A stretch of DNA of 64,000 nucleotides, taken from Kiritimatiellia bacterium. Its GTDB lineage: Bacteria > Verrucomicrobiota > Kiritimatiellia > RFP12 > UBA1067. Under the pieces are notes generated by a model. The model ran no database searches and was not told the DNA's origin. It was given only the letters and a program-made list of their open reading frames with translations. Shown one piece after another: positions 21,407-42,481 of the stretch. Both the position numbers and the translations under genes were made by a program. Location of the stretch: the NCBI GenBank assembly GCA_016296065.1, contig JAEDKA010000002.1, forward strand, positions 39,493-103,492, in the 5' to 3' direction. The number at the start of each line of letters is the position of its first letter. Position 1 is the stretch's first letter.

Positions 21407-21484
<78 letters not shown>

Positions 21485-21537
21485 TTTCAAACGGTACAAA
21501 GGGAATCTCTCCTTATTGCCGTGTAATTCAGACCCAA

Positions 21538-21572
21538 GAAAACCCCAAGTAATCTGGGGTTTTCGCTTTTCT
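21538..21572 (+). terminator. rho-independent terminator after tRNA-Pro
   Basis: aaaaccccaagtaatctggggtttt hairpin followed by a T-run. Confidence 0.6.
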
Positions 21573-21661
21573 TGGCTATAGAGAATCGTGTGCATGGTTG
21601 CCGTAGAGCGGCTCTGATCAAGATTCTGTTTGCATCACATACGCCACCAGTCGGTCAAAAA

Positions 21662-21830
21662 TATGGTATAACATGCACCGTCGGGGCAGTTGTTTTGGTA
21701 GTACGGAGAAGGAGGTGTGCGGGTGCCGCGTAATAGCAACGTAGAAAAGTTGTTATTTCGCAACGACTGCTCCGCCAACATTGGCGGCAGACTCTCAGAA
21801 CGGATGTTCTGGGGGTTTTTCTTTTGCCTG
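21662..21830 (+). ncRNA. candidate small RNA (promoter + ~150 nt + intrinsic terminator, no plausible ORF)
   Basis: atatggtataac promoter at 21662; terminator cagaacggatgttctgggggtttttcttttg at 21795-21830. Confidence 0.3.
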
Positions 21831-21901
21831 AAAATCCGTGGGTGCGGAGGGAAAAAAATTTAACAAACCCCCTTGTGGCTAAAAAGGCAATATGATATAA
21901 T

Positions 21902-21916
21902 GTGTCTCGTCAACAC
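21902..21916. promoter_or_regulatory. GTGT-N7-ACAC palindrome abutting the -10 of the Nudix gene (NrtR-type operator core)
   Basis: gatataat then GTGTctcgtcaACAC; the NrtR family is described as binding palindromes with a GT-N7-AC core. Confidence 0.4.
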
Positions 21917-21946
21917 AAATGAGATGATTTCCAAAAGGCACATATC

Positions 21947-22819
21947 ATGAAGCGCACGGCAGATGACATGAAGAAGATCGCGGAATACCGCAAGACGCTC
22001 GGCAAGTATCCGAAGCCGAGCGTCACGGCCGACATCATCGCCGTGCGCCCTGCCTACAGCGAGCTTGAGGAGAGCCAGTGGCGGGAAAATCCGGAGTTCG
22101 CGCTCGAGGTGCTGTTCATCAGGCGCGGGCAATGGCCGTACGAGGGAAGCTGGGCGCTTCCCGGCGGATTCATCCGTCCGACGGAGTCCGTTGACGAGGG
22201 CGCGCGGCGCGAGCTGCGCGAGGAGACGGCCCTTGAGTCCGAGCACCTCATCCCCGTCGGCGTCTTTTCAAAGCCCGACCGCGACATGAGGGCGTGGGTC
22301 ATCTCCAACGCGTTCGTGTCCGTGCATAGACGCGGACAGGGCTGCCACGTGAAGGGCGGCGACGATGCGGCGTCCGCCAAGTGGCTCACGCTGAAATTGC
22401 CGACTGTCGGGGATGGCAGGTTCCATCTTCCGTTCTACGACGGCGTGAAGCAGGCCTTCTGCCTTTCCGGCACCTACCGCGAGGAGGACCTCGGCGGCGG
22501 AACGGTTCTCTCCGTTGAAAAGAATCCGCTCGCGTTCGACCATGCGGAGATCATCGCGCAGGCGTTCCTGCGGATGCTCTCGTTCGACACGAAGAAGCTC
22601 GTGTTCTTCTTCCTGCCGGAGAAGTTCACGCTCTCCAACTACATCGACGTCTACCAGTACCTCACGCGCTACTCCGTAAGCCCGGCCAACATCCCGAGCT
22701 TCCGTCGCCAGCTCACCGCGACGAAGGAGCCGCTTCTTGAGGTGTGCGAGGGCGAGTGGGAGGACCTCGGCGGACGCGCCCACGCCCCGGCTAAGTTGTA
22801 CAGAAGGAGAAATGATTAA
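21947..22819 (+). CDS. Nudix hydrolase / Nudix-related transcriptional regulator (NrtR family)
   Basis: Nudix box GFIRPTESVDEGARRELREETAL plus a C-terminal region with LAFDHAEII, FTLSNY and FRRQL motifs typical of the NrtR winged-helix domain. Confidence 0.7.
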   Translation: MKRTADDMKKIAEYRKTLGKYPKPSVTADIIAVRPAYSELEESQWRENPEFALEVLFIRRGQWPYEGSWALPGGFIRPTESVDEGARRELREETALESEHLIPVGVFSKPDRDMRAWVISNAFVSVHRRGQGCHVKGGDDAASAKWLTLKLPTVGDGRFHLPFYDGVKQAFCLSGTYREEDLGGGTVLSVEKNPLAFDHAEIIAQAFLRMLSFDTKKLVFFFLPEKFTLSNYIDVYQYLTRYSVSPANIPSFRRQLTATKEPLLEVCEGEWEDLGGRAHAPAKLYRRRND

Positions 22820-22890
22820 CAGCCGTTTGCCTAAAGGGCATCAACATTTCACAAACAAACATCATATAGCCAAAAAGGAAAGAAGAAAAA

Positions 22891-23757
22891 ATGAACAGAA
22901 ACAAGGCTAAGGGGATGCTGTGGGGACTGATCGTCGGCGACGCGTTCGGGAGCCCCATACAGTTCAGTGGCAAGGACAACCATCCGTGGATCACGGAGAT
23001 GGTGGCGTGTCCGGTGTTCAGGCTTCCGCCCGGCTACTGGACGGACGACGGCTCGATGGCCATGTGCATAATGGACTCATACGTCCGCAAGGGCGGCTAT
23101 GACCTGAAGGACATCGGCGACACGTTCGTGAAGTGGTTCATGGACGGATACCTTTCGTCAAAGGAAGGGGAGTCGTTTGACGTCGGCGGCGCGACGTGGT
23201 CCGCCTGCCAGCATATCGCGTTCGACCACAGATATGTCAATGGACGCGAAGACGGGCAGGGCAACGGATCCATCATGCGCTTCGCGCCGTCGTACCTTCT
23301 CGCGCAGAAGGAGGGCGACCCCGCGAAGGCGATGCACGAGATCAGCGACCTCACGCACAGCTCGAGCAGGATTCGCGAGGTCGTGGATCGCTTCGCAAAG
23401 GTGCTGGACGAGCACATGGCGGGCAATCGCACATCGGAGGCATCGCCTTACAAGACTCGCGCGGCGGTGAACAACTCCGGATGGGCGGTCTCGACGCTTG
23501 ACGCCGCGCTCTGGGCGTTCAACACGACGCAATCCTTCGAGGACGGTCTCATTGCCGCCGTCAACCTTGGCGGCGACTCTGACTCCATCGGTGCGGTCTT
23601 CGGGCAGATCGCCGGGGCATACTATGGCTTCGACGCGATCCCCGGGCGATGGGTGAAGGCGGTCAAGACATGGGAGAAGGTCGATTCCCTGATTGAGGGT
23701 TTTCTCGACGCAGTGGAATGTCGCTCCGCCGGCGACATAAAGGAGGGCGGCATTTAG
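22891..23757 (+). CDS. ADP-ribosylglycohydrolase (ARH/DraG/Tri1 family)
   Basis: GLIVGDAFGSP and GGDSDSIGAV motifs of the ARH family. Confidence 0.8.
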   Translation: MNRNKAKGMLWGLIVGDAFGSPIQFSGKDNHPWITEMVACPVFRLPPGYWTDDGSMAMCIMDSYVRKGGYDLKDIGDTFVKWFMDGYLSSKEGESFDVGGATWSACQHIAFDHRYVNGREDGQGNGSIMRFAPSYLLAQKEGDPAKAMHEISDLTHSSSRIREVVDRFAKVLDEHMAGNRTSEASPYKTRAAVNNSGWAVSTLDAALWAFNTTQSFEDGLIAAVNLGGDSDSIGAVFGQIAGAYYGFDAIPGRWVKAVKTWEKVDSLIEGFLDAVECRSAGDIKEGGI

Positions 23758-25821: not shown

Positions 25822-26452
25822 GCACTCTGCGCCTCTGCGTTAAACATGAAACATCAAACTTCAAACATCAAACATCTGTACGCTCTACACGGCTAAACCT
25901 CAACCTCCCGATTTTCACAATGCCAACACGGGAGGGTCCAAATATGCTATACAACAAGTAATCGCAAACCAAGGAGACCCAAAGGAATCGACCTGAAACC
26001 ATCGCCAAGCCGACCGTGCGCGAGGTGATGGAGGAGTTCACTCGAATCCCGCTCATCGACGGCAAGACGTTCTGGGAGCTGGAGAACGAACTCGAGTGGG
26101 TGTAGCGGCATCTCCCGGCACTCTCATTTATATGCGGCAAATCCGCCGCTTGCAAAAGTAAACGTGGGTTTGAAAAGGTAAACGTTGGTTTGGTATCGTG
26201 AAGTACGGTTACATTTTCAAAAGTGGTCGCCATGCACGTGCCTGGCGTGCAAAAGCGCGGCCTGAGAGGCGGCTGCGCGGCGTTTGCGCACGCTTGGCCG
26301 GGATTTGCTACAATAGCCTCCCCTACCCACGACGCCTGGAAAGTTTCCGGCTTGCCGACTGGCGTCAAGGGAACATCCCCATGGAGGGGCTGGGCCTCCC
26401 GACGGAGGCTCAGTTTATTTCTCGTGCTTCAGTGCCTTTTTCGTTCTGTCCT

Positions 26453-27595
26453 TCATTTCACGCCGTTCCGCCTGAGGATGATGCGGTCGGCGTGGCGCTT
26501 GAACTTCTTGCCGAGCACGTACGGGTCGAGCGTCACCTCGTTCGCGGGGACCTTCACGATGCCGAGGCGGTCGAGGAGCCGGCGGCCTTCGTAGCCGTAG
26601 GCCTTCGCGAACTTGTCGTATGGCGTGGAGCCTTCGAGCGAGGCGCGCGTGTAGCTGTTGACGTGCGAGAGCGCGACGTTGACGTCGTCCTGTCCCAGCG
26701 AGTTGAAGCTCGTGCCCTTGATGAGGATGCGCCTGAGCTCCTCGTGGTTCCGCTCGACATGGGGCTTCTGCGTCGCGCAGTACGGGTCGCAGTAGAAGAC
26801 CCTCGTGCGGGGGATCAGCCGGTACGGGTTGTTGTCCGCGCGGGCGTTCTCGGTCATGACCGGGTCGGAGAACGGCGCTCCGTTGTCCTCGAGGATCGCG
26901 GGGAAGAGCTTCATGAACAGCGGCCTTCCTGCGGTGCGGTAGAGCATGTTCACGATGCCGGTCCACGTCTGGGCGGTCTCGCGCTCCTTGAGGAATGCCA
27001 TCATGAGCTGGCAGGGGAACTGGATCGTGAAGAGCACGCATCCGCCTACCTGGCCCTTGAGCGTGTCGGCTTCCGGCACGAGTGCCCCGGGGTTCTGCTC
27101 CTTCCAGAGGACGAAGAGGTCGTGCGTCCTGTTGACGCGGCACTTTGCGTCGGTCTTCGTCGCGGCCTGCTTCGGGCGGGGCCTGCGGGAGCATGCGTAG
27201 GGGAGGTCTCCGCGCCCGACGTCGAGGGCGTCCAGCCCGTCCGACCCGATGTAGCTGTAGACGGTCCTTTCGCTGAGCCCCCCGAAAGCGTCCGCGTTCG
27301 ACGCCATGATGTGGCGGACGGACTGCTTGCTGAGGAGCCCGTCCTTCAGTGCGGCGTTCATCTTCGCAAGAGTCTCGTCCGAGGCGTGGACGTGGCTGCG
27401 CGAGACGCGCAGCTTCGACTCGCGGTCGGCCTGGGCGACCCTGGCGACGTAGAACTTCTTCGGCAGGTGGCAGATGCGCTCGTTCGTGCATCCGTTGCAG
27501 ACGAAGGGCGGTGCGACGAGCCTGTCGCACGTGCGCGCCTCGTAGTCCCTGCACTGGAGGAAGCACTGGTGGCAGTTCTTGCACCACTTGTCCAT
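26453..27595 (-). CDS. IS30-family transposase, DDE catalytic part (Cys-rich N-terminus)
   Basis: CDPYCATQKPHVERNHEELRR matches the IS30 catalytic motif (DPY..WQ.G..EN.N); 380 aa. Confidence 0.75.
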   Translation of the reverse strand: MDKWCKNCHQCFLQCRDYEARTCDRLVAPPFVCNGCTNERICHLPKKFYVARVAQADRESKLRVSRSHVHASDETLAKMNAALKDGLLSKQSVRHIMASNADAFGGLSERTVYSYIGSDGLDALDVGRGDLPYACSRRPRPKQAATKTDAKCRVNRTHDLFVLWKEQNPGALVPEADTLKGQVGGCVLFTIQFPCQLMMAFLKERETAQTWTGIVNMLYRTAGRPLFMKLFPAILEDNGAPFSDPVMTENARADNNPYRLIPRTRVFYCDPYCATQKPHVERNHEELRRILIKGTSFNSLGQDDVNVALSHVNSYTRASLEGSTPYDKFAKAYGYEGRRLLDRLGIVKVPANEVTLDPYVLGKKFKRHADRIILRRNGVK

Positions 27596-27632
27596 GCCGC
27601 AGTTGGTGTCGCAGACGTGCGTGCGCCTGCAT

Positions 27633-27821
27633 TCACCGTACCACCTGACACGTCGAGTTCGTCTCCTTGAAGCCCTTGTTCGAGTCGACCCTCCTGTTCT
27701 TGATCTCGTTTGTTATGGTCTGTGGCGGCCTCTTCACGTAGGCTGCGATCTCGGGGATCGTCCACCCGCGCTTGAGCCCATCCTCTATTCCTTCCCGTTC
27801 GACTATGGTCATCTGTGCCAT
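27633..27821 (-). CDS. IS30-family transposase N-terminal HTH ORF; reading frame differs from the DDE ORF (frameshifted or disrupted)
   Basis: TIVEREGIEDGLKRGWTIPEIAAYVKRPPQTITNEIKNRR matches the IS30 HTH_38; 37-nt gap and a +1 frame offset to the downstream ORF. Confidence 0.6.
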   Translation of the reverse strand: MAQMTIVEREGIEDGLKRGWTIPEIAAYVKRPPQTITNEIKNRRVDSNKGFKETNSTCQVVR

Positions 27822-27899
27822 GTCAGTATCCTTTCTGATGTGGGCATCCCAGTCTGGCGACATGCCCGGCCATCGTGCCAAGCCGGGAAGTATAGCGAA

Positions 27900-28082
27900 T
27901 TTGCAGAACTAAACGAGGGTCATCCCCAAGGGGATGATAGCTGGGAGATATTATGCTCTCCATCAATCATATGCAAGGAGAATCAATGTCCTTTGAAGAA
28001 CTAAACGTTTCCAAAAACCATGTTTACTTTTCAAACCACAGACAGCTCTTTACAAAGGTGGGGATATTCCAGGTCTCACATC
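27900..28082 (+). mobile_element. IS4-family element terminal remnant
   Basis: shares ccaaaaacc…caaaggtggggatattccag with the tail of the IS4-type transposase fragment at 42540-42597. Confidence 0.4.
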
Positions 28083-28331
28083 AGCCGCGATTTTTGCTAT
28101 AATATTGTGCAGACGGTACAAGAAGATCTTGCTGTCGTCTCAGACCAGCTTCCGAAAACTACGACATTCTGAAGTTGCCAATAAACGGTTTGCGAGGTGC
28201 AACACATTTGGATGCGCCTTGTCGTGTGTTTATTGGCGGCTGTCGTAGGCCTTCGGAAGATGCACGGCATGGCGTGTCCTTTATATAAACTTAAAGGACG
28301 CGTCCTCTCGGGTGCGTTGGAAAGTCATAAG

Positions 28332-29291
28332 ATGGACAAGATGCAACCAGATGCGTCGAAAATTTCGATAGACGACAACCTTGCTAAGATTAAGTTGTTC
28401 TTGCGTGAGGTCATTCTAGAACCACGCAGGAAAATGCATAAATGGTCTATAATAACAAATCAAACGCCAAATCTTAAGATTGGGTATCCTGGACAACATC
28501 TTGCATCCCTAATTCTTGGAATGAAGGGGACAGGTACTGGTGCTCGAGGAGACGACATCGTTGACGGAACTGAAGTTAAGTCTTGCAGCCGTATCGATCA
28601 ACTTGATAAATGCAAGAAATGCAACGGCAACGTGTTGCGATCACAGAAAAATTGTCCAACATGTGGGTCTTCGGAAATCAAGCGGAACGATGATTCTAAG
28701 TGGTTGATAGCTATTCGAAGTGAAAGTGAACTTGAAATGTATCTTCGTAGAATTCCGAGGATGTTACTTATCATTTCTGATTATCCCGGCTTTGATTACA
28801 ACGACTTCTCATCCATGCGAATTAGAGCATACGAAATCTGGAACCAGTCATCCAGGGCGGCTGGTTTTCGTAATATTCTTACCCACTACTTTAATAACAT
28901 CTTTCTTGAGCATATCAAGAAGAACCCCAAGGCTACTCCTGCCCCTTACAATTTTTGGCCGGACTCTTTCGCATTTTACATGTGTAACCCGATCAAGATC
29001 TTTGAATCAATAATTACCGACATTGACGGCGACGATCCTGGAATTTCAATAACGCACTACATTGAGCCAAACAGGGATCGTAGTTCTCTCGCAAGCGAAT
29101 CAATGCCATCGTCCCTCCTTGTAGAGGAGGAAAAAGAATGCCTTCGTGCTAAGGGTGTTGATTTCTGCGTGGACGGTACAATTGATGAAACAATGAGAGT
29201 CTTTTTGCCGATACGCCTTGGCAAAGCGGTTTCTCACATGCGAAAATACCAGCGCAAGACAGGGCGTTCGACTTCACCCAAGCGGAAGTAG
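28332..29291 (+). CDS. putative Type II restriction endonuclease (PD-(D/E)XK-like)
   Basis: low-GC gene convergent with, and overlapping the 3' end of, the methyltransferase; GDDIVDGTEVKS resembles D…E.K; start moved to MDKMQ at 28332. Confidence 0.5.
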   Translation: MDKMQPDASKISIDDNLAKIKLFLREVILEPRRKMHKWSIITNQTPNLKIGYPGQHLASLILGMKGTGTGARGDDIVDGTEVKSCSRIDQLDKCKKCNGNVLRSQKNCPTCGSSEIKRNDDSKWLIAIRSESELEMYLRRIPRMLLIISDYPGFDYNDFSSMRIRAYEIWNQSSRAAGFRNILTHYFNNIFLEHIKKNPKATPAPYNFWPDSFAFYMCNPIKIFESIITDIDGDDPGISITHYIEPNRDRSSLASESMPSSLLVEEEKECLRAKGVDFCVDGTIDETMRVFLPIRLGKAVSHMRKYQRKTGRSTSPKRK

Positions 29292-30452
29292 ATCAGTTAC
29301 TTCGCTCGAATAGCGCTTTTTAATTGCCTTAATATATTGCTCGTCCATCTCAATTGTGAACGACTCACGATTGAGATGCTCAGCTGAAATCATTGTGGCT
29401 CCACTTCCGCCAAAAGGGTCAAGTACTTTGTCGCCAGGATTAGACGATGCCTTGATAAGGCGTTCAATCAATTTAATAGGTTTCTGGGTTGGGTGATATC
29501 GCTTCTCGCTATAAAAATCAATATCGGTCCACACGTCGCTATACCCCATTAAAGGATTGAAAGTCTGAACGATTTTATCGTAGGGGAAATTGAAATCAAG
29601 AATATCTTGAAGTTTGGCCCAGATTTCTCTGGTTGGGAATTGTTCACAAATATTCTTTCCTGTGTATATTGACCACATTCCTCCGCCATTTGACTTAACA
29701 CCTAGACGTTCATTAATTTCTTTTGATGTCAGCCCAAGTGCCTTTTGTCGCTCTTTTAGCAAATTTCTGGAGAATTCAATGTTGCTCTTTGTCAAGAATA
29801 AGATACTCTCTGTAACGCACGGGAACATCTTGTAGTTCTTGGTTGCTCTGCCCGCAACGGCTTTTATCCCCTTGTCAACTATTATCTGCTGGCGAAGGGA
29901 GAAGCCAATGTCTCGTAATGTTGGCAAGAGCAGGGCAAGCATCCTGAAATATCCAAAGAGATAGAAGGTTCCACCAATGCGCAATTTTTTATATACATCT
30001 GTCATCCACTGCTTCGACCATTCAATATAATCTTCTTCTGTCCTCCATTGGTAATCCCATTTTTCTCCAATCACTTTCCAATATGGAGGATCGGCGATAA
30101 CTAGATCCATTGTGGGAATTTCTTTACACTTCAAGACTTTAAGGCAATCTCCTGCATAAAGAGTGTGGCGACCTAACCTTGAAGTATGAAGTTCAAATGG
30201 CGACGAATCGTTGATAGATGGAGAGGCAATAGAGATTTGCTGATCTTTTTTAAGACGTGTACGCTTGCTATGAATGGTTTGATCGCTTTGTGTATCTTGT
30301 TTGATAGCATTGTCAGCGATAACTAGCTCTGGCAATGTGCTTGCAACACCCAATGCTACATTCTTGCAAAATGACCTTCTGCTGAGACTTTTATTTCCCG
30401 AAGGCCCGATTCGTTTATTGCTTTTAATTGTTTCTAGATTTGAATTAGACAT
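29274..30452 (-). CDS. DNA methyltransferase, beta-class N6-adenine/N4-cytosine (DPPY before FGGSG)
   Basis: IADPPYW (motif IV) followed by DPFGGSGAT (motif I); low GC. Confidence 0.85.
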   Translation of the reverse strand: MSNSNLETIKSNKRIGPSGNKSLSRRSFCKNVALGVASTLPELVIADNAIKQDTQSDQTIHSKRTRLKKDQQISIASPSINDSSPFELHTSRLGRHTLYAGDCLKVLKCKEIPTMDLVIADPPYWKVIGEKWDYQWRTEEDYIEWSKQWMTDVYKKLRIGGTFYLFGYFRMLALLLPTLRDIGFSLRQQIIVDKGIKAVAGRATKNYKMFPCVTESILFLTKSNIEFSRNLLKERQKALGLTSKEINERLGVKSNGGGMWSIYTGKNICEQFPTREIWAKLQDILDFNFPYDKIVQTFNPLMGYSDVWTDIDFYSEKRYHPTQKPIKLIERLIKASSNPGDKVLDPFGGSGATMISAEHLNRESFTIEMDEQYIKAIKKRYSSEVTDLLPLG

Positions 30453-30473
30453 GCTAAGACCTTGTTTGAGCTA

Positions 30474-30674
30474 CTATTTTACGATGTCAACAATGTCTCC
30501 AATATTGCAATTCATTACCGTGCATATACGCTTAAGAACGGACATGCTTACATCGTCTCCGCGCGTCATTTTCGCAATGGTAAATGATGATATGCCGGTC
30601 GCATGTCGGAGATCGGTCTTGTTCATGTCCTTGTCAATTAGCAGCTTCCACAGCTTTTTATATGAAACACTCAT
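30474..30674 (-). CDS. HTH XRE-family controller (C) protein of the R-M system
   Basis: 66 aa; helix-turn-helix LRHATGISSFTIAKMTRGDDVSMSVLKRI; 21 bp upstream of the MTase on the same strand. Confidence 0.6.
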   Translation of the reverse strand: MSVSYKKLWKLLIDKDMNKTDLRHATGISSFTIAKMTRGDDVSMSVLKRICTVMNCNIGDIVDIVK

Positions 30675-30926
30675 TTGCTACTCTTGTCTTATGCATATAA
30701 GATGATTTGTGGTTATTATAACAAAAAAACGGCTGAATCACAATAGGGGTTGCAATCATTTCCAAATTTGATATTTGTACAAACTAATGCAATGTTTGGA
30801 GATGCTAACGTCTAGTTTGTATTGGGGGTCAGCGTTATTCTTCGCGAATCTCCGCGCATCCTTGAAGAACTTCTGTTTGATTCAATCACAAGTGCGACGA
30901 CATAAGATTTGGTATAATGCACAGCA

Positions 30927-31853
30927 ATGGTAAAAAGTTGGCTATCGGCAAGTGTTGCTATCGTGATTTGGGGCGTGACGTTCGCCTCGACGCGGGTGCT
31001 ACTGGAGGAGTTCTCGGCGCTTGAGATCAACATCGTGCGGTTCGCCCTTGCGTGGGTGGCGCTCGCATGCGCGGCAAAAGTGCCGCGGAAGGGCGGGGTG
31101 TGCGCGGCTCCGTGGTGGCTGTTCGCGGCGATGGGCTTCACGGGCGTGTTCGCCTACCAGTTCCTCGAGAACTGCGCGATCTACTATACGAACGCGAGCA
31201 ACGTCGCGATACTCGTCTCGTTCGGGCCGGTCGTTACGGCCATAATGGCGCGGGCGCTGACAGCAGACCGCTCGCTTTCGCCGCGGCTCATCTTCGGGTC
31301 GCTAGTGGCGGTTGTTGGCGTCGCGTTCGTCGCACTGAACGGCGTCGTCAACTTTCAGCTGCGTCCGCTTGGCGACGCGATGGCGCTCTGCGCGATGGTA
31401 AGTTGGGGCATCTACTCCGTCCTCATCGAGAAGGCGAACCGACTTGGCGTGGAGCCGATTGTAGCCGTCAGGAAGTCGTTCGGCTGGGCGCTACTTATGA
31501 TGCTTCCGTTGGCTGTTTGGGGCGTTACGCCTTCCGGATTTGTCGCGCTCGATGGATCGTATTCCGTCACTATTGACGCCGACGCGAACCTTGACCGCTT
31601 TGCCTCGTTCTGGAATTGGGTCAACCTGGGCTTTCTCGGCGTTCTGGCGTCCGCTGCATGCTTCGTCCTCTGGAGTCGCGCGTGCAGGGTCATCGGCATG
31701 GTGCGGACAACGATTGGCCTTTATCTCACGCCAGTTGTCGGCGTGGCTTTTGCGGCGTTGTTCCTGAAGGAGCGGCTTACTTGGCTTTCGGTCGCCGGCG
31801 GAGTTCTTATTCTCGGCGGCGTGGCGATCGCGAACATGAGAAGGGAGGCGTAG
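30927..31853 (+). CDS. EamA/DMT-family transporter
   Basis: ten predicted TM segments; two EamA-like halves; promoter gatttggtataatgc. Confidence 0.8.
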   Translation: MVKSWLSASVAIVIWGVTFASTRVLLEEFSALEINIVRFALAWVALACAAKVPRKGGVCAAPWWLFAAMGFTGVFAYQFLENCAIYYTNASNVAILVSFGPVVTAIMARALTADRSLSPRLIFGSLVAVVGVAFVALNGVVNFQLRPLGDAMALCAMVSWGIYSVLIEKANRLGVEPIVAVRKSFGWALLMMLPLAVWGVTPSGFVALDGSYSVTIDADANLDRFASFWNWVNLGFLGVLASAACFVLWSRACRVIGMVRTTIGLYLTPVVGVAFAALFLKERLTWLSVAGGVLILGGVAIANMRREA

Positions 31854-31855
31854 AA

Positions 31856-32170
31856 ATGAGAGGCGTGATATTCCTGATGGCGTTTACGGTCGCGTTGTCT
31901 GCGTGCGCGGGAGACGAGACAAAGGTCGTCTTGTCTACGAACGACGTCGCTGCGGTGGTGCAGCGCGTCCAGTGCCATTCCGTCACGAAGTCCGGCAACA
32001 GGTGCAAGCGCAAGGCGGCGCCCGGCAAGCTCTATTGCCGCCAGCACGCAGCGCAGTCGTCTGCGGCGAAGCCGGCGGAGACTTGTGCCTACATTTCCGA
32101 CGACGGGAAGCGCTGTGCGGCGTCTGCCGCTTCTGGCAGCCGATTCTGCGCCAAGCACCAGGACAAGTGA
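31856..32170 (+). CDS. small lipoprotein with duplicated Cys/His zinc-ribbon-like motif
   Basis: lipobox LSAC; two repeats C-x(8,9)-C-x10-C-x2-H. Confidence 0.5.
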   Translation: MRGVIFLMAFTVALSACAGDETKVVLSTNDVAAVVQRVQCHSVTKSGNRCKRKAAPGKLYCRQHAAQSSAAKPAETCAYISDDGKRCAASAASGSRFCAKHQDK

Positions 32171-33915: not shown

Positions 33916-34147
33916 TGAAATTCAACAGACCAAGGTACTTTGGCGATAATGGCCGGGGTTTGGTAGAATAGGCGGTGTATGGCGGAGTCCATGCCAGGGA
34001 TGGTTCTCGCAGCGCTGTTCCACGATTGCTGCAAGAGGGGGATGCCTGGCGATAGGGGATAATTGGGGGCCTGGCACGGGGTGTGCTAATAGTCTGGTGT
34101 GTGCGCGGCGGTTCGCGTGCGAAGGAAAACGAAAAGGAGGTTCGGCT

Positions 34148-35479
34148 ATGAGGCAGGTTAATGTTAAGATCGGTGACATCACCGAGGAAACGGTTGATGC
34201 AATTGTGAATGCGGCGAACCGCAGCATGCTTGGCGGCGGCGGGGTGGATGGCGCTATACACAGAGCAGCGGGGCCGCAGCTCAAGTCCGAATGTGAAAAG
34301 TATCCACCAGATGCGCATGGGTATCGTCTAAAGACAGGAGAGGCGAAGATTACGATTGGATGCAATCTTTCTGCGAAGTTCGTGATACATACGGCGGGGC
34401 CGGACTGCAGTGAGGTTCGTGATGCTGCTGAGCAGGATCGGCTGCTGACGGCATCGTGGCGCAACTCCCTTGCCATTGTCGCCGAGCGTGGATTGAAGTC
34501 CGTCGCGTTCCCGTCAATTTCGACCGGAATCTATGGTTTCCCTAAGGAACGGGCGGCAAAGATCGCCGCTGCCGAAGTAGCCAAGTTCCTCGCCGACTAT
34601 CCCGATGTCGAAGTGCGGATATGCCTGCTGGGTCACGATGCCGAGTCGACGAAACGGCTTTACGAGGATGCGTTTGCCCATTCAATGCCCACGTCATTTC
34701 CTACCATTTCCGTTTCCAGACGAGCCCGGTTCCCGGATGAACTTTCATACGATGTCATTGCAGGTGAGTTTAGGCAGACAGCGAACGGTGCAACGTGTCC
34801 GCGTCATGGGTATATCGATGGCGTTCACTACATTGCGAAGTGCGAGACATTCCAGCAGTTGGTGAATCGCCCCAAGACCACTTCGGAAAAACATGTTCAC
34901 AACGAGTTCGTCGCGGACGGGGTGATTCGCGGCATGGGGTTTAATGTCCCGGAGAGTAGAGAGTATAGGACGCGAGAGAATAGAGTGCTCGTTCGCCTTG
35001 CCAAGTTCATCGCGCCAACGAGTCCTCTCTGCAATGCCTGGAATGCTGCAGATAGTGAAGCGAAAGAAGCGATACGTCGACAGGTGGTTGCGGCATATCC
35101 ACTTCTGCATCTGATTGCCGGATTTGATACGTTCCAGAACGACAATGTCATTGTAACAGAGGATGGGAAACTGTGGTTTGTTGACAACGGTGCATCGTTT
35201 GGGTGGAGCGCTATGGGAGCGTACGACAAGTACTACAAATACAGTGGGAGAACAGATCCAGACGATTCCCAATATGGCTTTCTTTCGTTGCGTAATCATC
35301 CAGGGCAAAAGTTGCTTCAGAGAGTTCTGTCGGGTGTAGCGGATGCGGAACTGTGGGCTGGGGCGGCTAAGCTTGACGTCGACAGGTTCGTCTCGCTGCT
35401 TCCTGCAGACGAATATGACGTATCATCCATTCGCACCTATGCAGAGACTCTCGTAAGAGAGGCAAAAAAGCATTGTTGA
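34148..35479 (+). CDS. MacroD-type macro domain fused to a C-terminal PI3K/PI4K-like (atypical kinase-like) domain
   Basis: N-terminus: VDAIVNAAN, GGGGVDGAIHRAAGP, VIHTAGP, AFPSISTGIYGFP (MacroD catalytic motifs). C-terminus: LIAGFDTFQNDNVIVTEDGKLWFVDNGASFG aligns with the PI3K catalytic and activation loops (GDRHxxN…DFG). Confidence 0.75.
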   Translation: MRQVNVKIGDITEETVDAIVNAANRSMLGGGGVDGAIHRAAGPQLKSECEKYPPDAHGYRLKTGEAKITIGCNLSAKFVIHTAGPDCSEVRDAAEQDRLLTASWRNSLAIVAERGLKSVAFPSISTGIYGFPKERAAKIAAAEVAKFLADYPDVEVRICLLGHDAESTKRLYEDAFAHSMPTSFPTISVSRRARFPDELSYDVIAGEFRQTANGATCPRHGYIDGVHYIAKCETFQQLVNRPKTTSEKHVHNEFVADGVIRGMGFNVPESREYRTRENRVLVRLAKFIAPTSPLCNAWNAADSEAKEAIRRQVVAAYPLLHLIAGFDTFQNDNVIVTEDGKLWFVDNGASFGWSAMGAYDKYYKYSGRTDPDDSQYGFLSLRNHPGQKLLQRVLSGVADAELWAGAAKLDVDRFVSLLPADEYDVSSIRTYAETLVREAKKHC

Positions 35480-35658
35480 TTGAATGATGTATGTTGTTCC
35501 ACTGGCGAGATGTGGAAGGGTCGACCACCGGCCGGCCAGGATTGTGGCGCGCTCAGTGATCGCGCAACGGCGTGGCACAATGAGGTGGAGCTTCCAGCTC
35601 CTCCCGTCCGGGCACGTGGCGCGGCGAGACGCCGCACCTCCTTGTCTGTCGCATGAAA

Positions 35659-35714
35659 TGTCGCTCCGCTTGCGACATGGGGTGCGGCGGGATTTGGTAG
35701 AATAGGCGGTGAAA
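35659..35714 (+). promoter_or_regulatory. island promoter-operator cassette C
   Basis: TGTCGCTCCGCTTGCGACA + tggggtgcggcgggat + TTGGTAGAATAGGCGGTGAAAG; 15 nt upstream of the CYTH gene ATG. Confidence 0.6.
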
Positions 35715-36205: not shown

Positions 36206-36291
36206 AATTTCGCTTTGGCGGCGCGGAGATCTGAGTCTCCTGGCAATTGGAGCCTACGAGCAGATTTTCTCCGCGCGCCTTTTTCTTGCAC

Positions 36292-36350
36292 TTGTCGCTC
36301 CGTTGGCGACATGGGGTGGGATGGGTTTTGGTAGAATAGGCGGCGAAAAG
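36292..36350 (+). promoter_or_regulatory. island promoter-operator cassette D (orphan: no ORF downstream)
   Basis: TGTCGCTCCGTTGGCGACA + tggggtgggatgggtt + TTGGTAGAATAGGCGGCGAAAAG. Confidence 0.6.
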
Positions 36351-36445
36351 AGTCGAAAACGAGTAGCCTTTTCGCGGGTGTAATCCGTCACTTCGACTGC
36401 CCCCGAGTGCGAACCGCCATGCGGTCGGGGGCTTTCTATTTGGCG
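36343..36445 (+). ncRNA. candidate ~100-nt small RNA transcribed from cassette D and ended by an intrinsic terminator
   Basis: predicted TSS after TAGAAT; internal hairpin GCGAAAAG…CTTTTCGC; terminator GCCCCCGAGTG…TCGGGGGC + TTTCTATTT at 36398-36445; longest ORF is 20 aa. Confidence 0.35.
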
Positions 36446-36584
36446 GACTATGTGCTCCCTGTGTCTCGCGCGAGATTAGTCTGAATCCAATTCTTCGAGC
36501 GCCGATTCGGCTTCCTCCTGCTCGCGAAGACGCTCCTCGTCCTCTGTGGTCCATTCCGTCTCTGCATTGATAGGAGGCCGGACG

Positions 36585-36752
36585 CTACTTCTCCGGGGTC
36601 ACTCTCATAGCGCGTTGCCACTCGCCGGAGTCGTCCCAGCCGTCCGCCGCCTTGCGGATCCGCTTTGCCCTTGCCTCGATCGAGCGCTTCCGCTCCGCCT
36701 CCGTCCATGTCGGAGGATTCCAGTGATAGGATGTAGTTCCAGAGTTGCTCAT
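36585..36752 (-). CDS. small hypothetical protein (55 aa, Trp-rich)
   Basis: MSNSGTTSYHWNPPTWTEAERKRSIEARAKRIRKAADGWDDSGEWQRAMRVTPEK; RBS gaagggaa; below the ORF-track size cutoff. Confidence 0.3.
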   Translation of the reverse strand: MSNSGTTSYHWNPPTWTEAERKRSIEARAKRIRKAADGWDDSGEWQRAMRVTPEK

Positions 36753-36961
36753 GTTGCGTTCCCTTCGAGGCTGCGAACTCTTCTCGGGTGAAGCGCGGAT
36801 GCCTCAGTTCGCCAGTCTCAAGCCCGCGCATCACCGCCTTCAGCTTTTCCTGGTTCACGTTGGGTAGTGTAGCATTTTTCCCTTGAGCAGTCAACGAGTG
36901 CAGGGCGGTTTTCCGGGCTTCGCGTTCATTTCTTCGGAAACTACGATAGCGGGTCGGGAAA

Positions 36962-38362: not shown

Positions 38363-38420
38363 TGTCGCTCCGCCGGCGACAAGGGGAGGGGCGGGTTTTG
38401 GTAGAATAGGCGGCGTAAAA
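38363..38420 (+). promoter_or_regulatory. island promoter-operator cassette G
   Basis: TGTCGCTCCGCCGGCGACA + aggggaggggcgggtt + TTGGTAGAATAGGCGGCGTAAAAC. Confidence 0.6.
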
Positions 38421-40329: not shown

Positions 40330-40953
40330 ATGAACAAGCGCATTAAACAGCTGACGATCGCCGACAGGGTGCCTGGATTTACGAGATACGCAGAGTTCTT
40401 CGACCGGCTTGGTGGTGCTGGCTCTCCCATCCGTCCGTCGCGAGAGGAGAAGGAGCGCCTTGTCGAGCGGCTGTCGCAAATCAGAGGTCGGCCGCGTTAC
40501 CTTTTCGACGGTGTGCGCGAGGACATCCTGTCGACTGCGGAGGTCAGGGAATGCCGGCGATTCCCCGACGGACGGCTGTACGTCCGCTACGAAGTGGAAG
40601 CAATGCTGACCGACGGGAGTTGGGACGGTCCGCATGAGCTGCTTACGGCATGGGGCACCGACGGGCGGCTTGACGCCTATACCTTCTTGCATGGCACCGG
40701 ACGTGGCACGGAGGTCGCGGCGACATTGCACTTGGCCTGTAATGTCGATGGTTATGGCGACGAATACGTGAGCGACGTGGGCAGCGTCCTTGCGTTCGCC
40801 GAAGAGATGGACATCGGCGATGGGGTTGTCGTCGGGAACGACGAGTGCTGCGGTGAGTTCATGATGGCGACGAAGGAGAAGTGCGGCATCCGGCTCTGTT
40901 GGCAGGTCTTCGCATCCCCGTGGATCTTCTTCGCGTTCGTGCGTCGGGCTTGA
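40330..40953 (+). CDS. hypothetical protein (207 aa)
   Basis: promoter TGGTAGAATTGTCGTCAAAAGG at 40283 (cassette-like, no palindrome). Confidence 0.5.
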   Translation: MNKRIKQLTIADRVPGFTRYAEFFDRLGGAGSPIRPSREEKERLVERLSQIRGRPRYLFDGVREDILSTAEVRECRRFPDGRLYVRYEVEAMLTDGSWDGPHELLTAWGTDGRLDAYTFLHGTGRGTEVAATLHLACNVDGYGDEYVSDVGSVLAFAEEMDIGDGVVVGNDECCGEFMMATKEKCGIRLCWQVFASPWIFFAFVRRA

Positions 40954-41026
40954 GCGTGCGTCGGAGGCGATCCGCACCTACTTCGACAAGGGGATCCTTG
41001 GCATACAGGATTTTTGCGAATGGGAG

Positions 41027-41356
41027 ATGGCGGAGGAATACGATGAACAATCCGGGCTCGTGACATTCCACATTTCGCGCGAACTGCGGCGCGACCTTCT
41101 GCGTGCAATGCGCAAAGGCGACAGGATTGCAGAGCAGACGCTCCGCGACGCGGGGGTGAAAAATTCTGGCGCAATGGACGAACAGGAGGTCCGCGTTCCG
41201 TATGCTCCGTATCGAAAGATGCTGTCCACGCTTCGGGAAGCGCTTGACGATATCAAGCCAAGAGAAGAGTATCGTCGGCTCCAACTTTATCTCGCGCTTC
41301 GTGATGATGAGCTGGCGCAGAACAATCTAGGTAATATATACAGAAAATCAAAATAG
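41027..41356 (+). CDS. hypothetical protein (109 aa)
   Basis: ORF only; start uncertain. Confidence 0.35.
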   Translation: MAEEYDEQSGLVTFHISRELRRDLLRAMRKGDRIAEQTLRDAGVKNSGAMDEQEVRVPYAPYRKMLSTLREALDDIKPREEYRRLQLYLALRDDELAQNNLGNIYRKSK

Positions 41357-41551
41357 CGGTTAGCCGTGAGTACGGACTTTCCGAAAACTGGGAGGAGATT
41401 GATTTGACATGTGGCTGGCGAATGGTATTAGCATCGCCTCGGACGTAAAGGGCAATGGGTCGGGAAACCGGCATAGCTCATGCAAGAGATTCGCCAGCCA
41501 CTTTTATCTGACAGTAATGAAATGGTGGCGCACTAACAGGAGAAGTGCACG

Positions 41552-42481
41552 ATGAGAACCAACGAAGCGACAACTGACGACAAGTTCTGGACGGAACTTG
41601 CTCGCGCCGGGGAAGCGGGCGACATGAAGCGGTTCAACGAGCTGTTGGATTCTATCGGCAAGATACAGATCAGCACAGTCAACGATTTTGACTCTGGATT
41701 CTGGACGCCGCTCATGCATGCCGTCGAAGATGGCGATCTGAAGCGTTTTGATGAGCTAATTGCTGATGGTGCGGATGTCAACGTAGGTAATTTTGAAACA
41801 GAGACATACCCCATTACCCTTGCTGCCGAATATGGTCGTGATGAGATGTTCTTCCGCCTGGTTGAGCTTGGCGCCAGCATGGACGTGGACCAGTATTGCT
41901 GCCCATGCTGCGATATGTGGTATGGATTCAATCCTGCAGATCTGTTTGTTCTCGCAATGGAGGCGGGAAGTGTGAAAATTGCTCGCTATCTCAGCTTCAT
42001 GGGAGTGCGTCCGTGGTCGTCTACGCGGTCGCTTCGCAACTGCGGGGATACTGTCCGTGAAGTGGCGAAAGCCTCAGGGAATGGGGATTTTCTCAGGCGC
42101 GTCATTATGACGAAAGAGCTCGCACAGGGGTACATCACGAGATGGCGCGTCGAGGAAACGATAAGGTTCATCAAGCAGTCGTACCGTCTGGAGCACATGA
42201 GGCTGCTGGACTTCCAGCGGCTGAGGAACATGGCGGCGCTTGTCGTGGCTGTGGCGTACTTCGCGGCGGCCTGGCTCGGCAAGAAGGTGAAGCTCGACGC
42301 GCTCGCCAGGCACGTCGCAAAGGTCTCGCGCAAAATGTTCGAGGTGCCGGAGTTCTTCTACTACGCAATCGCGGACGGCCTCCGCTGGCTCTTCGTGCGC
42401 CACGGGAAGTGGCGCGGATGGAAGTGCCCGCGAGAGGAATGCGGCGACTTGCAGATGGAGTTCGAGCTGCTGACGGGATGA
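41552..42481 (+). CDS. chimeric ORF: N-terminal ankyrin-repeat protein fused in frame to a C-terminal IS4-family transposase fragment
   Basis: ANK repeats (GFWTPLMHAVEDGDLKRFDELIADGADVNV); from ~aa 195, YITRWRVEETIRFIKQ is the Y-x2-R-x3-E-x6-K signature of DDE_Tnp_1 (IS4). Confidence 0.55.
   Translation: MRTNEATTDDKFWTELARAGEAGDMKRFNELLDSIGKIQISTVNDFDSGFWTPLMHAVEDGDLKRFDELIADGADVNVGNFETETYPITLAAEYGRDEMFFRLVELGASMDVDQYCCPCCDMWYGFNPADLFVLAMEAGSVKIARYLSFMGVRPWSSTRSLRNCGDTVREVAKASGNGDFLRRVIMTKELAQGYITRWRVEETIRFIKQSYRLEHMRLLDFQRLRNMAALVVAVAYFAAAWLGKKVKLDALARHVAKVSRKMFEVPEFFYYAIADGLRWLFVRHGKWRGWKCPREECGDLQMEFELLTG

Follow-up and report, generated by a model that had tools for sequence, protein, structure and literature searches.

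A promoter-terminator unit lacking an open reading frame in a cassette island of rumen bacteria: predicted transcript, recurrence and possible roles

Integron arrays are made up of interchangeable cargo units, and an occasional unit has no open reading frame (ORF), its content being perhaps limited to a promoter or a small RNA. Prophage morons are autonomous units of promoter, gene and terminator. InvR of Salmonella SPI-1 is an island-encoded sRNA under the control of the island's own regulator, while GadY/gadX and the type I pairs RatA/txpA and SR4/bsrG are examples of convergent antisense RNAs that overlap their partners at the 3' end. The unit described here, D, resembles each of these in part. 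It lies in the window, the whole stretch of 64,000 nucleotides of Kiritimatiellia DNA that was analysed, within a modular island. Like an integron cassette, D is interchangeable, slot for slot, with units that bear an ORF, but every unit of this island has its own operator and promoter, shuffling apparently occurs by homologous recombination between cassettes of ~55 nt, and neither an attC-type recombination site nor, within 22-46 kb, an ORF resembling an integrase was noticed. Like a moron, it stands among the genes of a mobile island as a self-contained unit, equipped with both a promoter and a terminator, but it has no gene, the promoters form one regulated family, and the island gave no hits in viral contigs. 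With InvR it shares the concept of a short, terminator-ended RNA on the promoter type that drives island protein genes, but D is a candidate with no standout target in the island, no compensatory pairs and a variability close to neutral. As in the GadY/gadX-type pairs, D lies tail-to-tail with a protein gene and could pair with the 3' UTR of its partner; unlike GadY, RatA and SR4, it stops 36 nt before the partner ORF and also occurs without it, and, unlike the type I pairs, this partner is a kinase of 325-390 aa rather than a small toxin.

The cassette family and its island

A module of ~55 nt, made up of the palindrome TGTCGC-N7-GCGACA, a G-rich spacer and the block TTTGGTAGAATAGGCGG, occurs eight times on the plus strand of the window (Table 1). 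The palindrome pattern matches nine times in the window against 0.47 expected, and the -10 block nine times against 0.26 expected; eight cassettes were counted after dropping a minus-strand re-reading of D's own palindrome and chance matches. The seven cassettes other than D each lead into an ORF, and in six of the seven an SD sequence and ATG are found 16-35 nt past TAGAAT, a spacing to be expected of a promoter that leaves a short 5' UTR. Downstream of the degenerate cassette at 33925 come a long leader of ~130-180 nt and then a macro-domain ORF. A second arrangement was also observed, in the window and in related contigs, in which the cassette is followed by a conserved non-coding leader of ~165 nt (GGCGGCGTGTGACGGTCGGAGAGAG...GGTTGTCAGAAT...), a palindrome and promoter of a different type (e.g., CGTCGCCAGACAGTCGATA...TAATAGAAC) and an ORF.

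The island begins beside a tRNA-Pro (region 21407-23757), and its early genes specify a Nudix/NrtR-like protein and an ADP-ribosylglycohydrolase. The former, at the island edge, combines a Nudix domain with an NrtR-type winged helix, the match to NrtR_WHD reaching 20.9 bits, under the Pfam cut-off of 27, and it is a candidate regulator for the palindromes. NrtR operators have a 21-bp symmetry with the core GT-N7-AC (Rodionov et al. 2008, PMC2330246). Most cassettes similarly extend to a 21-bp palindrome, ATGTCGC-N7-GCGACAT, but their core is GC-N7-GC rather than GT-N7-AC, and the left flank in D is T, not A. Together with the macro and CYTH cargo, the first genes of the island suggest an ADP-ribose/NAD theme. 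Across the island family the cargo domains include macro, ADP-ribosylglycohydrolase, Nudix/NrtR-like, CYTH, Kinase-PolyVal, HIRAN and Sel1, a set that suggests roles in conflict or stress linked to ADP-ribose/NAD. When the cargo proteins were scanned with PHROG and PADLOC, the results did not assign the island to a phage, conjugative or defence class.

Unit D and its predicted transcript

Every feature that a preliminary description had listed for cassette D was found where it had been placed. A full palindrome and promoter had been claimed, and the palindrome and an extended -10 are both intact. The centre of the operator lies ~42 nt upstream of the predicted start site, so that the palindrome covers the -35 position, and TGn directly precedes a TAnnnT hexamer, as in sigma-70 extended -10 promoters. 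No -35 hexamer is recognisable in D: ACATGG stands 17 bp upstream, where the palindrome lies, and a consensus scan did not call D. In a comparison of leaders, the initial ~8 nt were those of the generic cassette leader, and ~20 nt after the -10 were common to D and the ORF-poor unit E (L022, L023 and L033). The statement that no ORF lies downstream also stands, there being none of at least 30 aa with a plus-strand start codon in the interval from the predicted start site to the terminator. A small peptide was considered and rejected, as no start codon is preceded by an SD and the only starts within the transcript are a GUG-UAA and an AUG inside the terminator. A riboswitch or leader of a downstream gene was rejected too, since no plus-strand gene follows; next to D is a convergent gene in the window and a MITE-like element in L031.

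On its left, D is bounded by the 3' UTR of the CYTH gene, the hairpin of which folds at -32.2 kcal/mol (z = -2.1), and in L020 the same junction of hairpin and cassette comes after a 276-aa gene. On its right, the stretch 36442-36468 moves with D into other contexts. Between these, the strong intrinsic terminator of the preliminary description was borne out: its G+C-rich hairpin folds at -23.8 kcal/mol, beyond chance (z = -3.09; matched by none of 200 shuffles), and in the RNA the stem GCCCCCGA/UCGGGGGC is followed by a U-rich tract, UUUCUAUUU, with 7 U of 9. On the minus strand the same hairpin runs into AGUCGAAGUG, which is U-poor and has no U-run, so the terminator is polar and serves the plus strand only; that polarity rules it out as a terminator of the minus-strand kinase gene. 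The CYTH unit and the 221-aa unit likewise end in terminator-like hairpins.

The ~100 nt of D had been called structured, and this holds for the terminator hairpin but less clearly for the 5' half. The whole 102-nt stretch has z = -1.9, the 55-nt 5' domain folds no better than its shuffles (z = -0.3 to -1.2), and hairpin 1 has a competitor in a long-range stem (36351-57/36392-98) that RNAalifold prefers and that is invariant in all copies of D. The arms of the two helices alternate in the order a-b-a'-b', which is a pseudoknot topology. The 5' 15-17 nt of D are complementary to two downstream segments beyond chance (P about 0.001-0.008, dinucleotide shuffles), a hint of a designed fold that falls short of a structure.

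With these elements D very probably gives a terminated transcript of ~97 nt when the cassette promoters fire. Once the promoters of the regulon are on, RNA polymerase would start ~7 nt past TAGAAT (about 36344), and the leader-derived RNA would be halted by the plus-strand terminator.

Table 1. Location of features of unit D, its neighbours and related elements (window coordinates unless a contig is named)
Feature	Location	Strand	Remarks
Cassettes in the window	23719, 32478, 33925 (degenerate palindrome), 35659, 36293 (D), 36962, 37807, 38363	+	
Palindromic operator of D, TGTCGCTCCGTTGGCGACA (TGTCGC-N7-GCGACA)	36293-36311	no strand	Half-sites perfect in 6/6 D haplotypes
Extended -10, TGgTAGAAT	36329-36337	+	Block invariant across cassettes; putative promoter
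5' leader of D, GCGAAAAGAGUCGAA	36343-36358	+	Start site about 36343-36346, predicted from the -10
Hairpin 1, GCGAAAAG with CTTTTCGC (RNA CUUUUCGC)	36343-36350 with 36368-36375	+	
Alternative long-range stem, AGUCGAA/UUCGACU	36351-57/36392-98	+	RNAalifold consensus, single-sequence folds, shuffle test
Intrinsic terminator of D	36399-36441	+	8-bp GC-rich outer helix and inner 4-bp helix, then U-tract; arms GCCCCCGA (36399-36406) and TCGGGGGC (36425-36432), then TTTCTATTT (36433-36441)
Post-terminator stretch, GGCGGACUAUG...	36442-36468	+	Right boundary of D-specific segment; alignment of window, L031 and L005
D-specific sequence patterns			CACTTCGACTGCCCCCGAG-N18-TCGGGGGC; GAGTCGAAAACGAGTAGCC
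3' UTR of upstream CYTH gene	36206-36287	+	Long hairpin about 36217-36279, then UUUUUCUU; terminator-like; left boundary of D
Kinase-PolyVal pseudogene, convergent on D	36478-36870	-	Homologues cover full length
Intact kinase copy	L009 3867-~4900	-	Pfam PF18762, E = 2e-11
Putative sigma-70-like promoter of kinase module, TTGACT-17-TACACT with TG	36866-36894	-	Consensus scan; not cassette type
Nudix and NrtR-type winged-helix protein	21947-22819		At island edge
D context 1: CYTH gene, D, convergent kinase gene	Window, L009, L019, L029		
D context 2: 159-aa gene, D, convergent kinase gene	L022, L033		
D context 3: 316-aa gene, D, MITE-like inverted-repeat element, next cassette	L031		Right flank shared by L005
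Cassette with ~165-nt leader (second arrangement)	Window 33925-34145; L012 344-590, 5646-; L019 1931-1677 (-); L020 1251-1497, 3968-4222		
MITE-like element	L031 4689-4790; L005 about 2200-2100, 1160-1100 (-); L024 4420-4510		
Unit E	L033 800-456 (-); L022 1-101; L023 1-300		Cassette-type promoter

Recurrence, context and variation of D

Relatives were gathered by a cassette scan of metagenomes, which gave 11 contigs, and further ones came through members of the 90% protein clusters of both neighbours. The samples with related islands are ruminant gut metagenomes. The D-specific segment (36346-~36468, ~120 nt) is present at 96-99% identity in 10 other contigs, or 11 with L001, a Logan contig identical to the window; it was found in L009, L019, L022, L031, L033, L034 and L035, and as fragments cut by contig ends in L029, L023 and L005. 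Conservation of the segment elsewhere had been proposed as a check, and the outcome was positive, in three neighbourhoods. The copies comprise six haplotypes in three contexts and several samples, and this recurrence marks D as a separate 'cargo' unit without an ORF rather than as a scar that arose once. Its palindrome half-sites, TAGAAT and terminator are intact in all six haplotypes, while other orphan cassettes have decayed (window 33925; L005 2025-1982; L010 4048). A covariance model of D detected no diverged copies among 35 loci and the window, D was not found in more distant islands, and neither two pattern scans of representative genomes nor viral contigs gave any match.

In 8 of the 10 other contigs, as in the window, D is tail-to-tail with an inverted gene for a Kinase-PolyVal protein. 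Within the kinase cluster of at least 90% identity, D is at the 3' end in all seven copies that have downstream DNA, and also in the window. The window copy of the gene lacks 613 nt at about 36577-36581, at a 5-nt microhomology (GCCGG), and its frame is shifted. Kinase homologues of ~70% identity (L013-L018) have neither D nor canonical cassettes downstream, and the one in L018 converges on a cargo gene across a 4-nt gap, with no terminator. Two homologues (~56-58% identical to the query) are named as Kiritimatiellae MAGs.

Slots occupied by D in some islands hold other units elsewhere. In L020 and L021, a 276-aa ORF is driven by the cassette directly after the CYTH terminator, the place where D would be, and the slot between the 316-aa gene and the MITE-like element, filled by D in L031, carries a cassette and a 69-aa ORF in L024. 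The cassette ahead of D in L031 is identical to that of the CYTH gene in the window; cassettes therefore recombine, with the D-specific ~120 nt acting as ORF-less cargo. Presence or absence of whole units between near-identical islands would fit such cassette-mediated shuffling. The leader of D resembles the long-type leaders (that of the cassette at 38363 and in L006), its SD is degenerate, with GAAAGGAG changed to GA-GUAG, and a GUG-UAA stands 16 nt before the terminator stem, its UAA being lost in L022 and L029. A parent gene ending in the 3' UTR or terminator of D was not found in the 35 loci. The scenario that would have undone the preliminary description, a remnant of a lost cargo gene, could apply: ORFs occupy the same slots elsewhere (L020, L024), and deletions and orphaned cassettes abound in these islands.

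Variation within D gives little sign of a constrained RNA fold. Compensatory changes are absent from the 26 predicted pairs, divergence being shallow and power low, and in four of the six haplotypes hairpin 1 has uncompensated defects, either A>U in its 5' arm (L009, L029) or a deleted A (L022, L031), variants that also occur in the generic leaders of other cassettes. The terminator has changed at one stem position, a C>U that keeps a G.U pair (L029), and at one loop position (L031), and most changes fall in the 5' domain. D varies at ~11 sites per ~100 nt, close to the synonymous divergence of its neighbours: 12 of 76 four-fold sites vary in the adjacent CYTH gene, and pS between pairs lies at 0.04-0.07 in the kinase gene and at 0.04-0.15 in CYTH. 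In the comparison with L009, no segment is less conserved than D, whose predicted transcript contains all three of the differences within 36206-36580; in that with L019, D is the most conserved (99% vs 87-97%). On this shallow sampling D appears to be a mosaic that evolves at about the neutral rate.

Searches for a known family or a target gave few leads. Rfam 15 had no match at E <= 1 on either strand of 22000-44000, and there is no tRNA or tmRNA in 22-44 kb, ARAGORN finding three ordinary tRNAs elsewhere only. Of the two analyses that had been proposed beside conservation, the covariance model gave, as above, no diverged copy, and target prediction against the island produced no hit clearly above shuffles. 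In a duplex scan with the 5' domain of D (21-44 kb, both strands), the best non-self values were -44.9 and -44.0, where the minima of shuffles ranged from -36.7 to -42.5, and these two duplexes are inside ORFs (at 34606 in the macro gene, and at 42406), away from translation starts.

Possible roles of D and further observations on the islands

The reading we favour, tentatively and a little short of calling it probable, is that D is an orphan promoter under operator control, with a terminator that protects the inverted kinase module against transcription in the antisense direction, the RNA being a by-product. Transcription, termination, the insulating role and the origin of D are all deduced here from sequence. 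Most likely, an inverted, independently promoted kinase module, or a deletion, would have replaced the cargo ORF behind the D cassette. The part that matters would then be the promoter-terminator pair, which would stop cassette transcription from running antisense into the convergent gene, and the short RNA would probably be incidental rather than a selected trans-acting regulator. Insulation is not the sole reason for D to exist, since D persists where there is no kinase gene (L031 and L005). Also counting against insulation are the kinase homologue of L018, which manages with a 4-nt gap and no terminator, and the five other loci of ~70% identity that lack D. The complementarity within the leader, the failure to find a parent gene in 35 loci and the high conservation of D relative to L019 also tell against this reading.

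A regulatory role for the D RNA is possible, if on the unlikely side. The preliminary description had suggested a small RNA belonging to the regulon, and what survives of this is the recurrent, ORF-less unit running from promoter to terminator; compensatory pairs, variability below neutral, an Rfam family and a standout target in the island did not emerge. Stated specifically, D would encode a trans-acting sRNA, co-regulated with the cargo through the common operator and promoter, whose targets in the island or the host would be affected through base pairing or protein binding, and this we regard as distinctly unlikely. The unit is complete and without an ORF, but it matches nothing in Rfam at E <= 1, shows no compensatory pair, and its U-tract UUUCUAUUU is interrupted. 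It behaves as mobile 'cargo', behind different cassette variants and in three contexts, yet it is absent from more distant islands and its best island duplexes barely pass the shuffle minima and avoid translation starts. Its promoter and terminator are intact in 6/6 haplotypes while other orphan cassettes have decayed, but its variability is about neutral. Finally, the leader may be sequestered, its complementarity exceeding chance, but the 5' domain does not fold above shuffles and hairpin 1 is defective, without compensation, in 4/6 haplotypes.

It is also clearly unlikely that D is a neutral scar, left when an internal deletion fused the 5' UTR of a cargo gene to its 3' UTR and terminator, then spread by recombination between cassettes, with a transcript that is noise. 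The degenerate SD and the GUG-UAA, which is placed where a stop codon would be expected, suit such a history, as does the microhomology-mediated deletion documented 200 nt away, but no parent gene with the D terminator is present at any locus. Substitutions accumulate at about the neutral density and alternative ORFs occupy the same slots, yet the promoter and terminator show no decay in six haplotypes, the unit has been retained in three contexts, and the self-complementarity of the leader is not random.

A broader proposition, which we judge very unlikely as a whole, is that the ~55-nt cassettes are portable modules for recombination and expression, a promoter-borne counterpart of integron cassettes, in islands of rumen and probably Kiritimatiellae bacteria, and that D is an RNA cargo of the system: a regulon-coupled RNA of ~97 nt, its leader locked by two segments, possibly as a pseudoknot, that would tune the kinase module or other island transcripts. 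Least credible is a cis-antisense role, in which kinase mRNA, having no proper terminator of its own, would read through D and the D RNA would pair with its 3' UTR to alter processing or stability: read-through is plausible because the hairpin lacks a U-run after it on the minus strand, the linkage of D to the kinase is tight (8/10 other contigs and the window), and a separate promoter of sigma-70-like type would keep the kinase module outside the operator regulon, but the overlap would be confined to the UTR because D ends 36 nt before the stop codon, D survives without the kinase (L031, L005) and beside the dead gene of the window, the homologues of ~70% identity have no D, and there is no sign that the kinase is toxic or needs such control.

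Should the D RNA prove to have a function, this uncharacterised and highly modular family of islands in uncultured rumen bacteria would gain its first non-coding component. If D is only an insulated orphan promoter, it would still mark the turnover of cargo behind identical promoters, where slots are exchanged, become empty and are filled anew, and it would show that a terminator is retained at places where a cassette promoter points at an inverted module. By itself D is a routine sRNA candidate, and the surrounding cassette system is the more interesting object.

Several other features of these islands were observed. The MITE-like element is ~115 nt long with terminal inverted repeats (AGGGGGTTCCGTCGCTCCGCGACGGAAC ... 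GGTCCGTCGCGGAGCGACGGACCCCCT), and its insertions were seen after D, after a 69-aa gene and inside a CYTH gene. Two units in L005 carry little or no cargo: at 2025-1407 (-/+) the -10 of an orphan cassette runs straight into a convergent YoeB/DinJ toxin-antitoxin pair at its 3' end, and at 1283-1100 (-) a cassette drives only a CYTH stub of ~25 codons, with its ATG changed to ATT and cut by the MITE-like element. A search for more of the L005 context by way of its YoeB toxin gave short or unrelated contigs only. Unit E has 20 nt of leader as in D (GCGAAAAGAGTCGAA), followed by ~330 nt without a called gene, and is a mosaic of fragments that are also present in L019, L034, L003, L012 and the window (41413-41493); it had no credible match in Rfam, where a miRNA fell below threshold (23 bits, the gathering score being 97; E = 0.23). 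Relative to the window (35486-35659), L009 (1925-3049) has ~1.1 kb of additional cargo, with ORFs of 133 and 206 aa, that lies between its macro unit and its CYTH unit.

Within the N-terminal part of the kinase gene, a 55-aa ORF occupies a second frame (window 36585-36752, minus strand). By eye it resembles a free-standing, cassette-driven protein of 69 aa in L024 (4177-4386, plus strand; ...RKAA[D/E]GWD..G.WQRAM...), and this overlap may represent either overlapping genes or a mis-called N-terminus of the kinase. The cassette array of the window is interrupted at about 26400-31900 by a block that includes a transposase-like ORF (26453-27595, minus strand) and a low-GC (43-51%) pair of restriction enzyme-like and DPPY-motif methylase-like genes (28197-30452), all identified by eye, with a DMT/EamA transporter gene, named from the annotations of its protein cluster, after the pair. 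Further along, at 40330-41356 on the plus strand, ORFs of 207 and 109 aa correspond to one intact gene of 342 aa in L018 (2588-1560, minus strand), and so a cargo gene has been split in the window.
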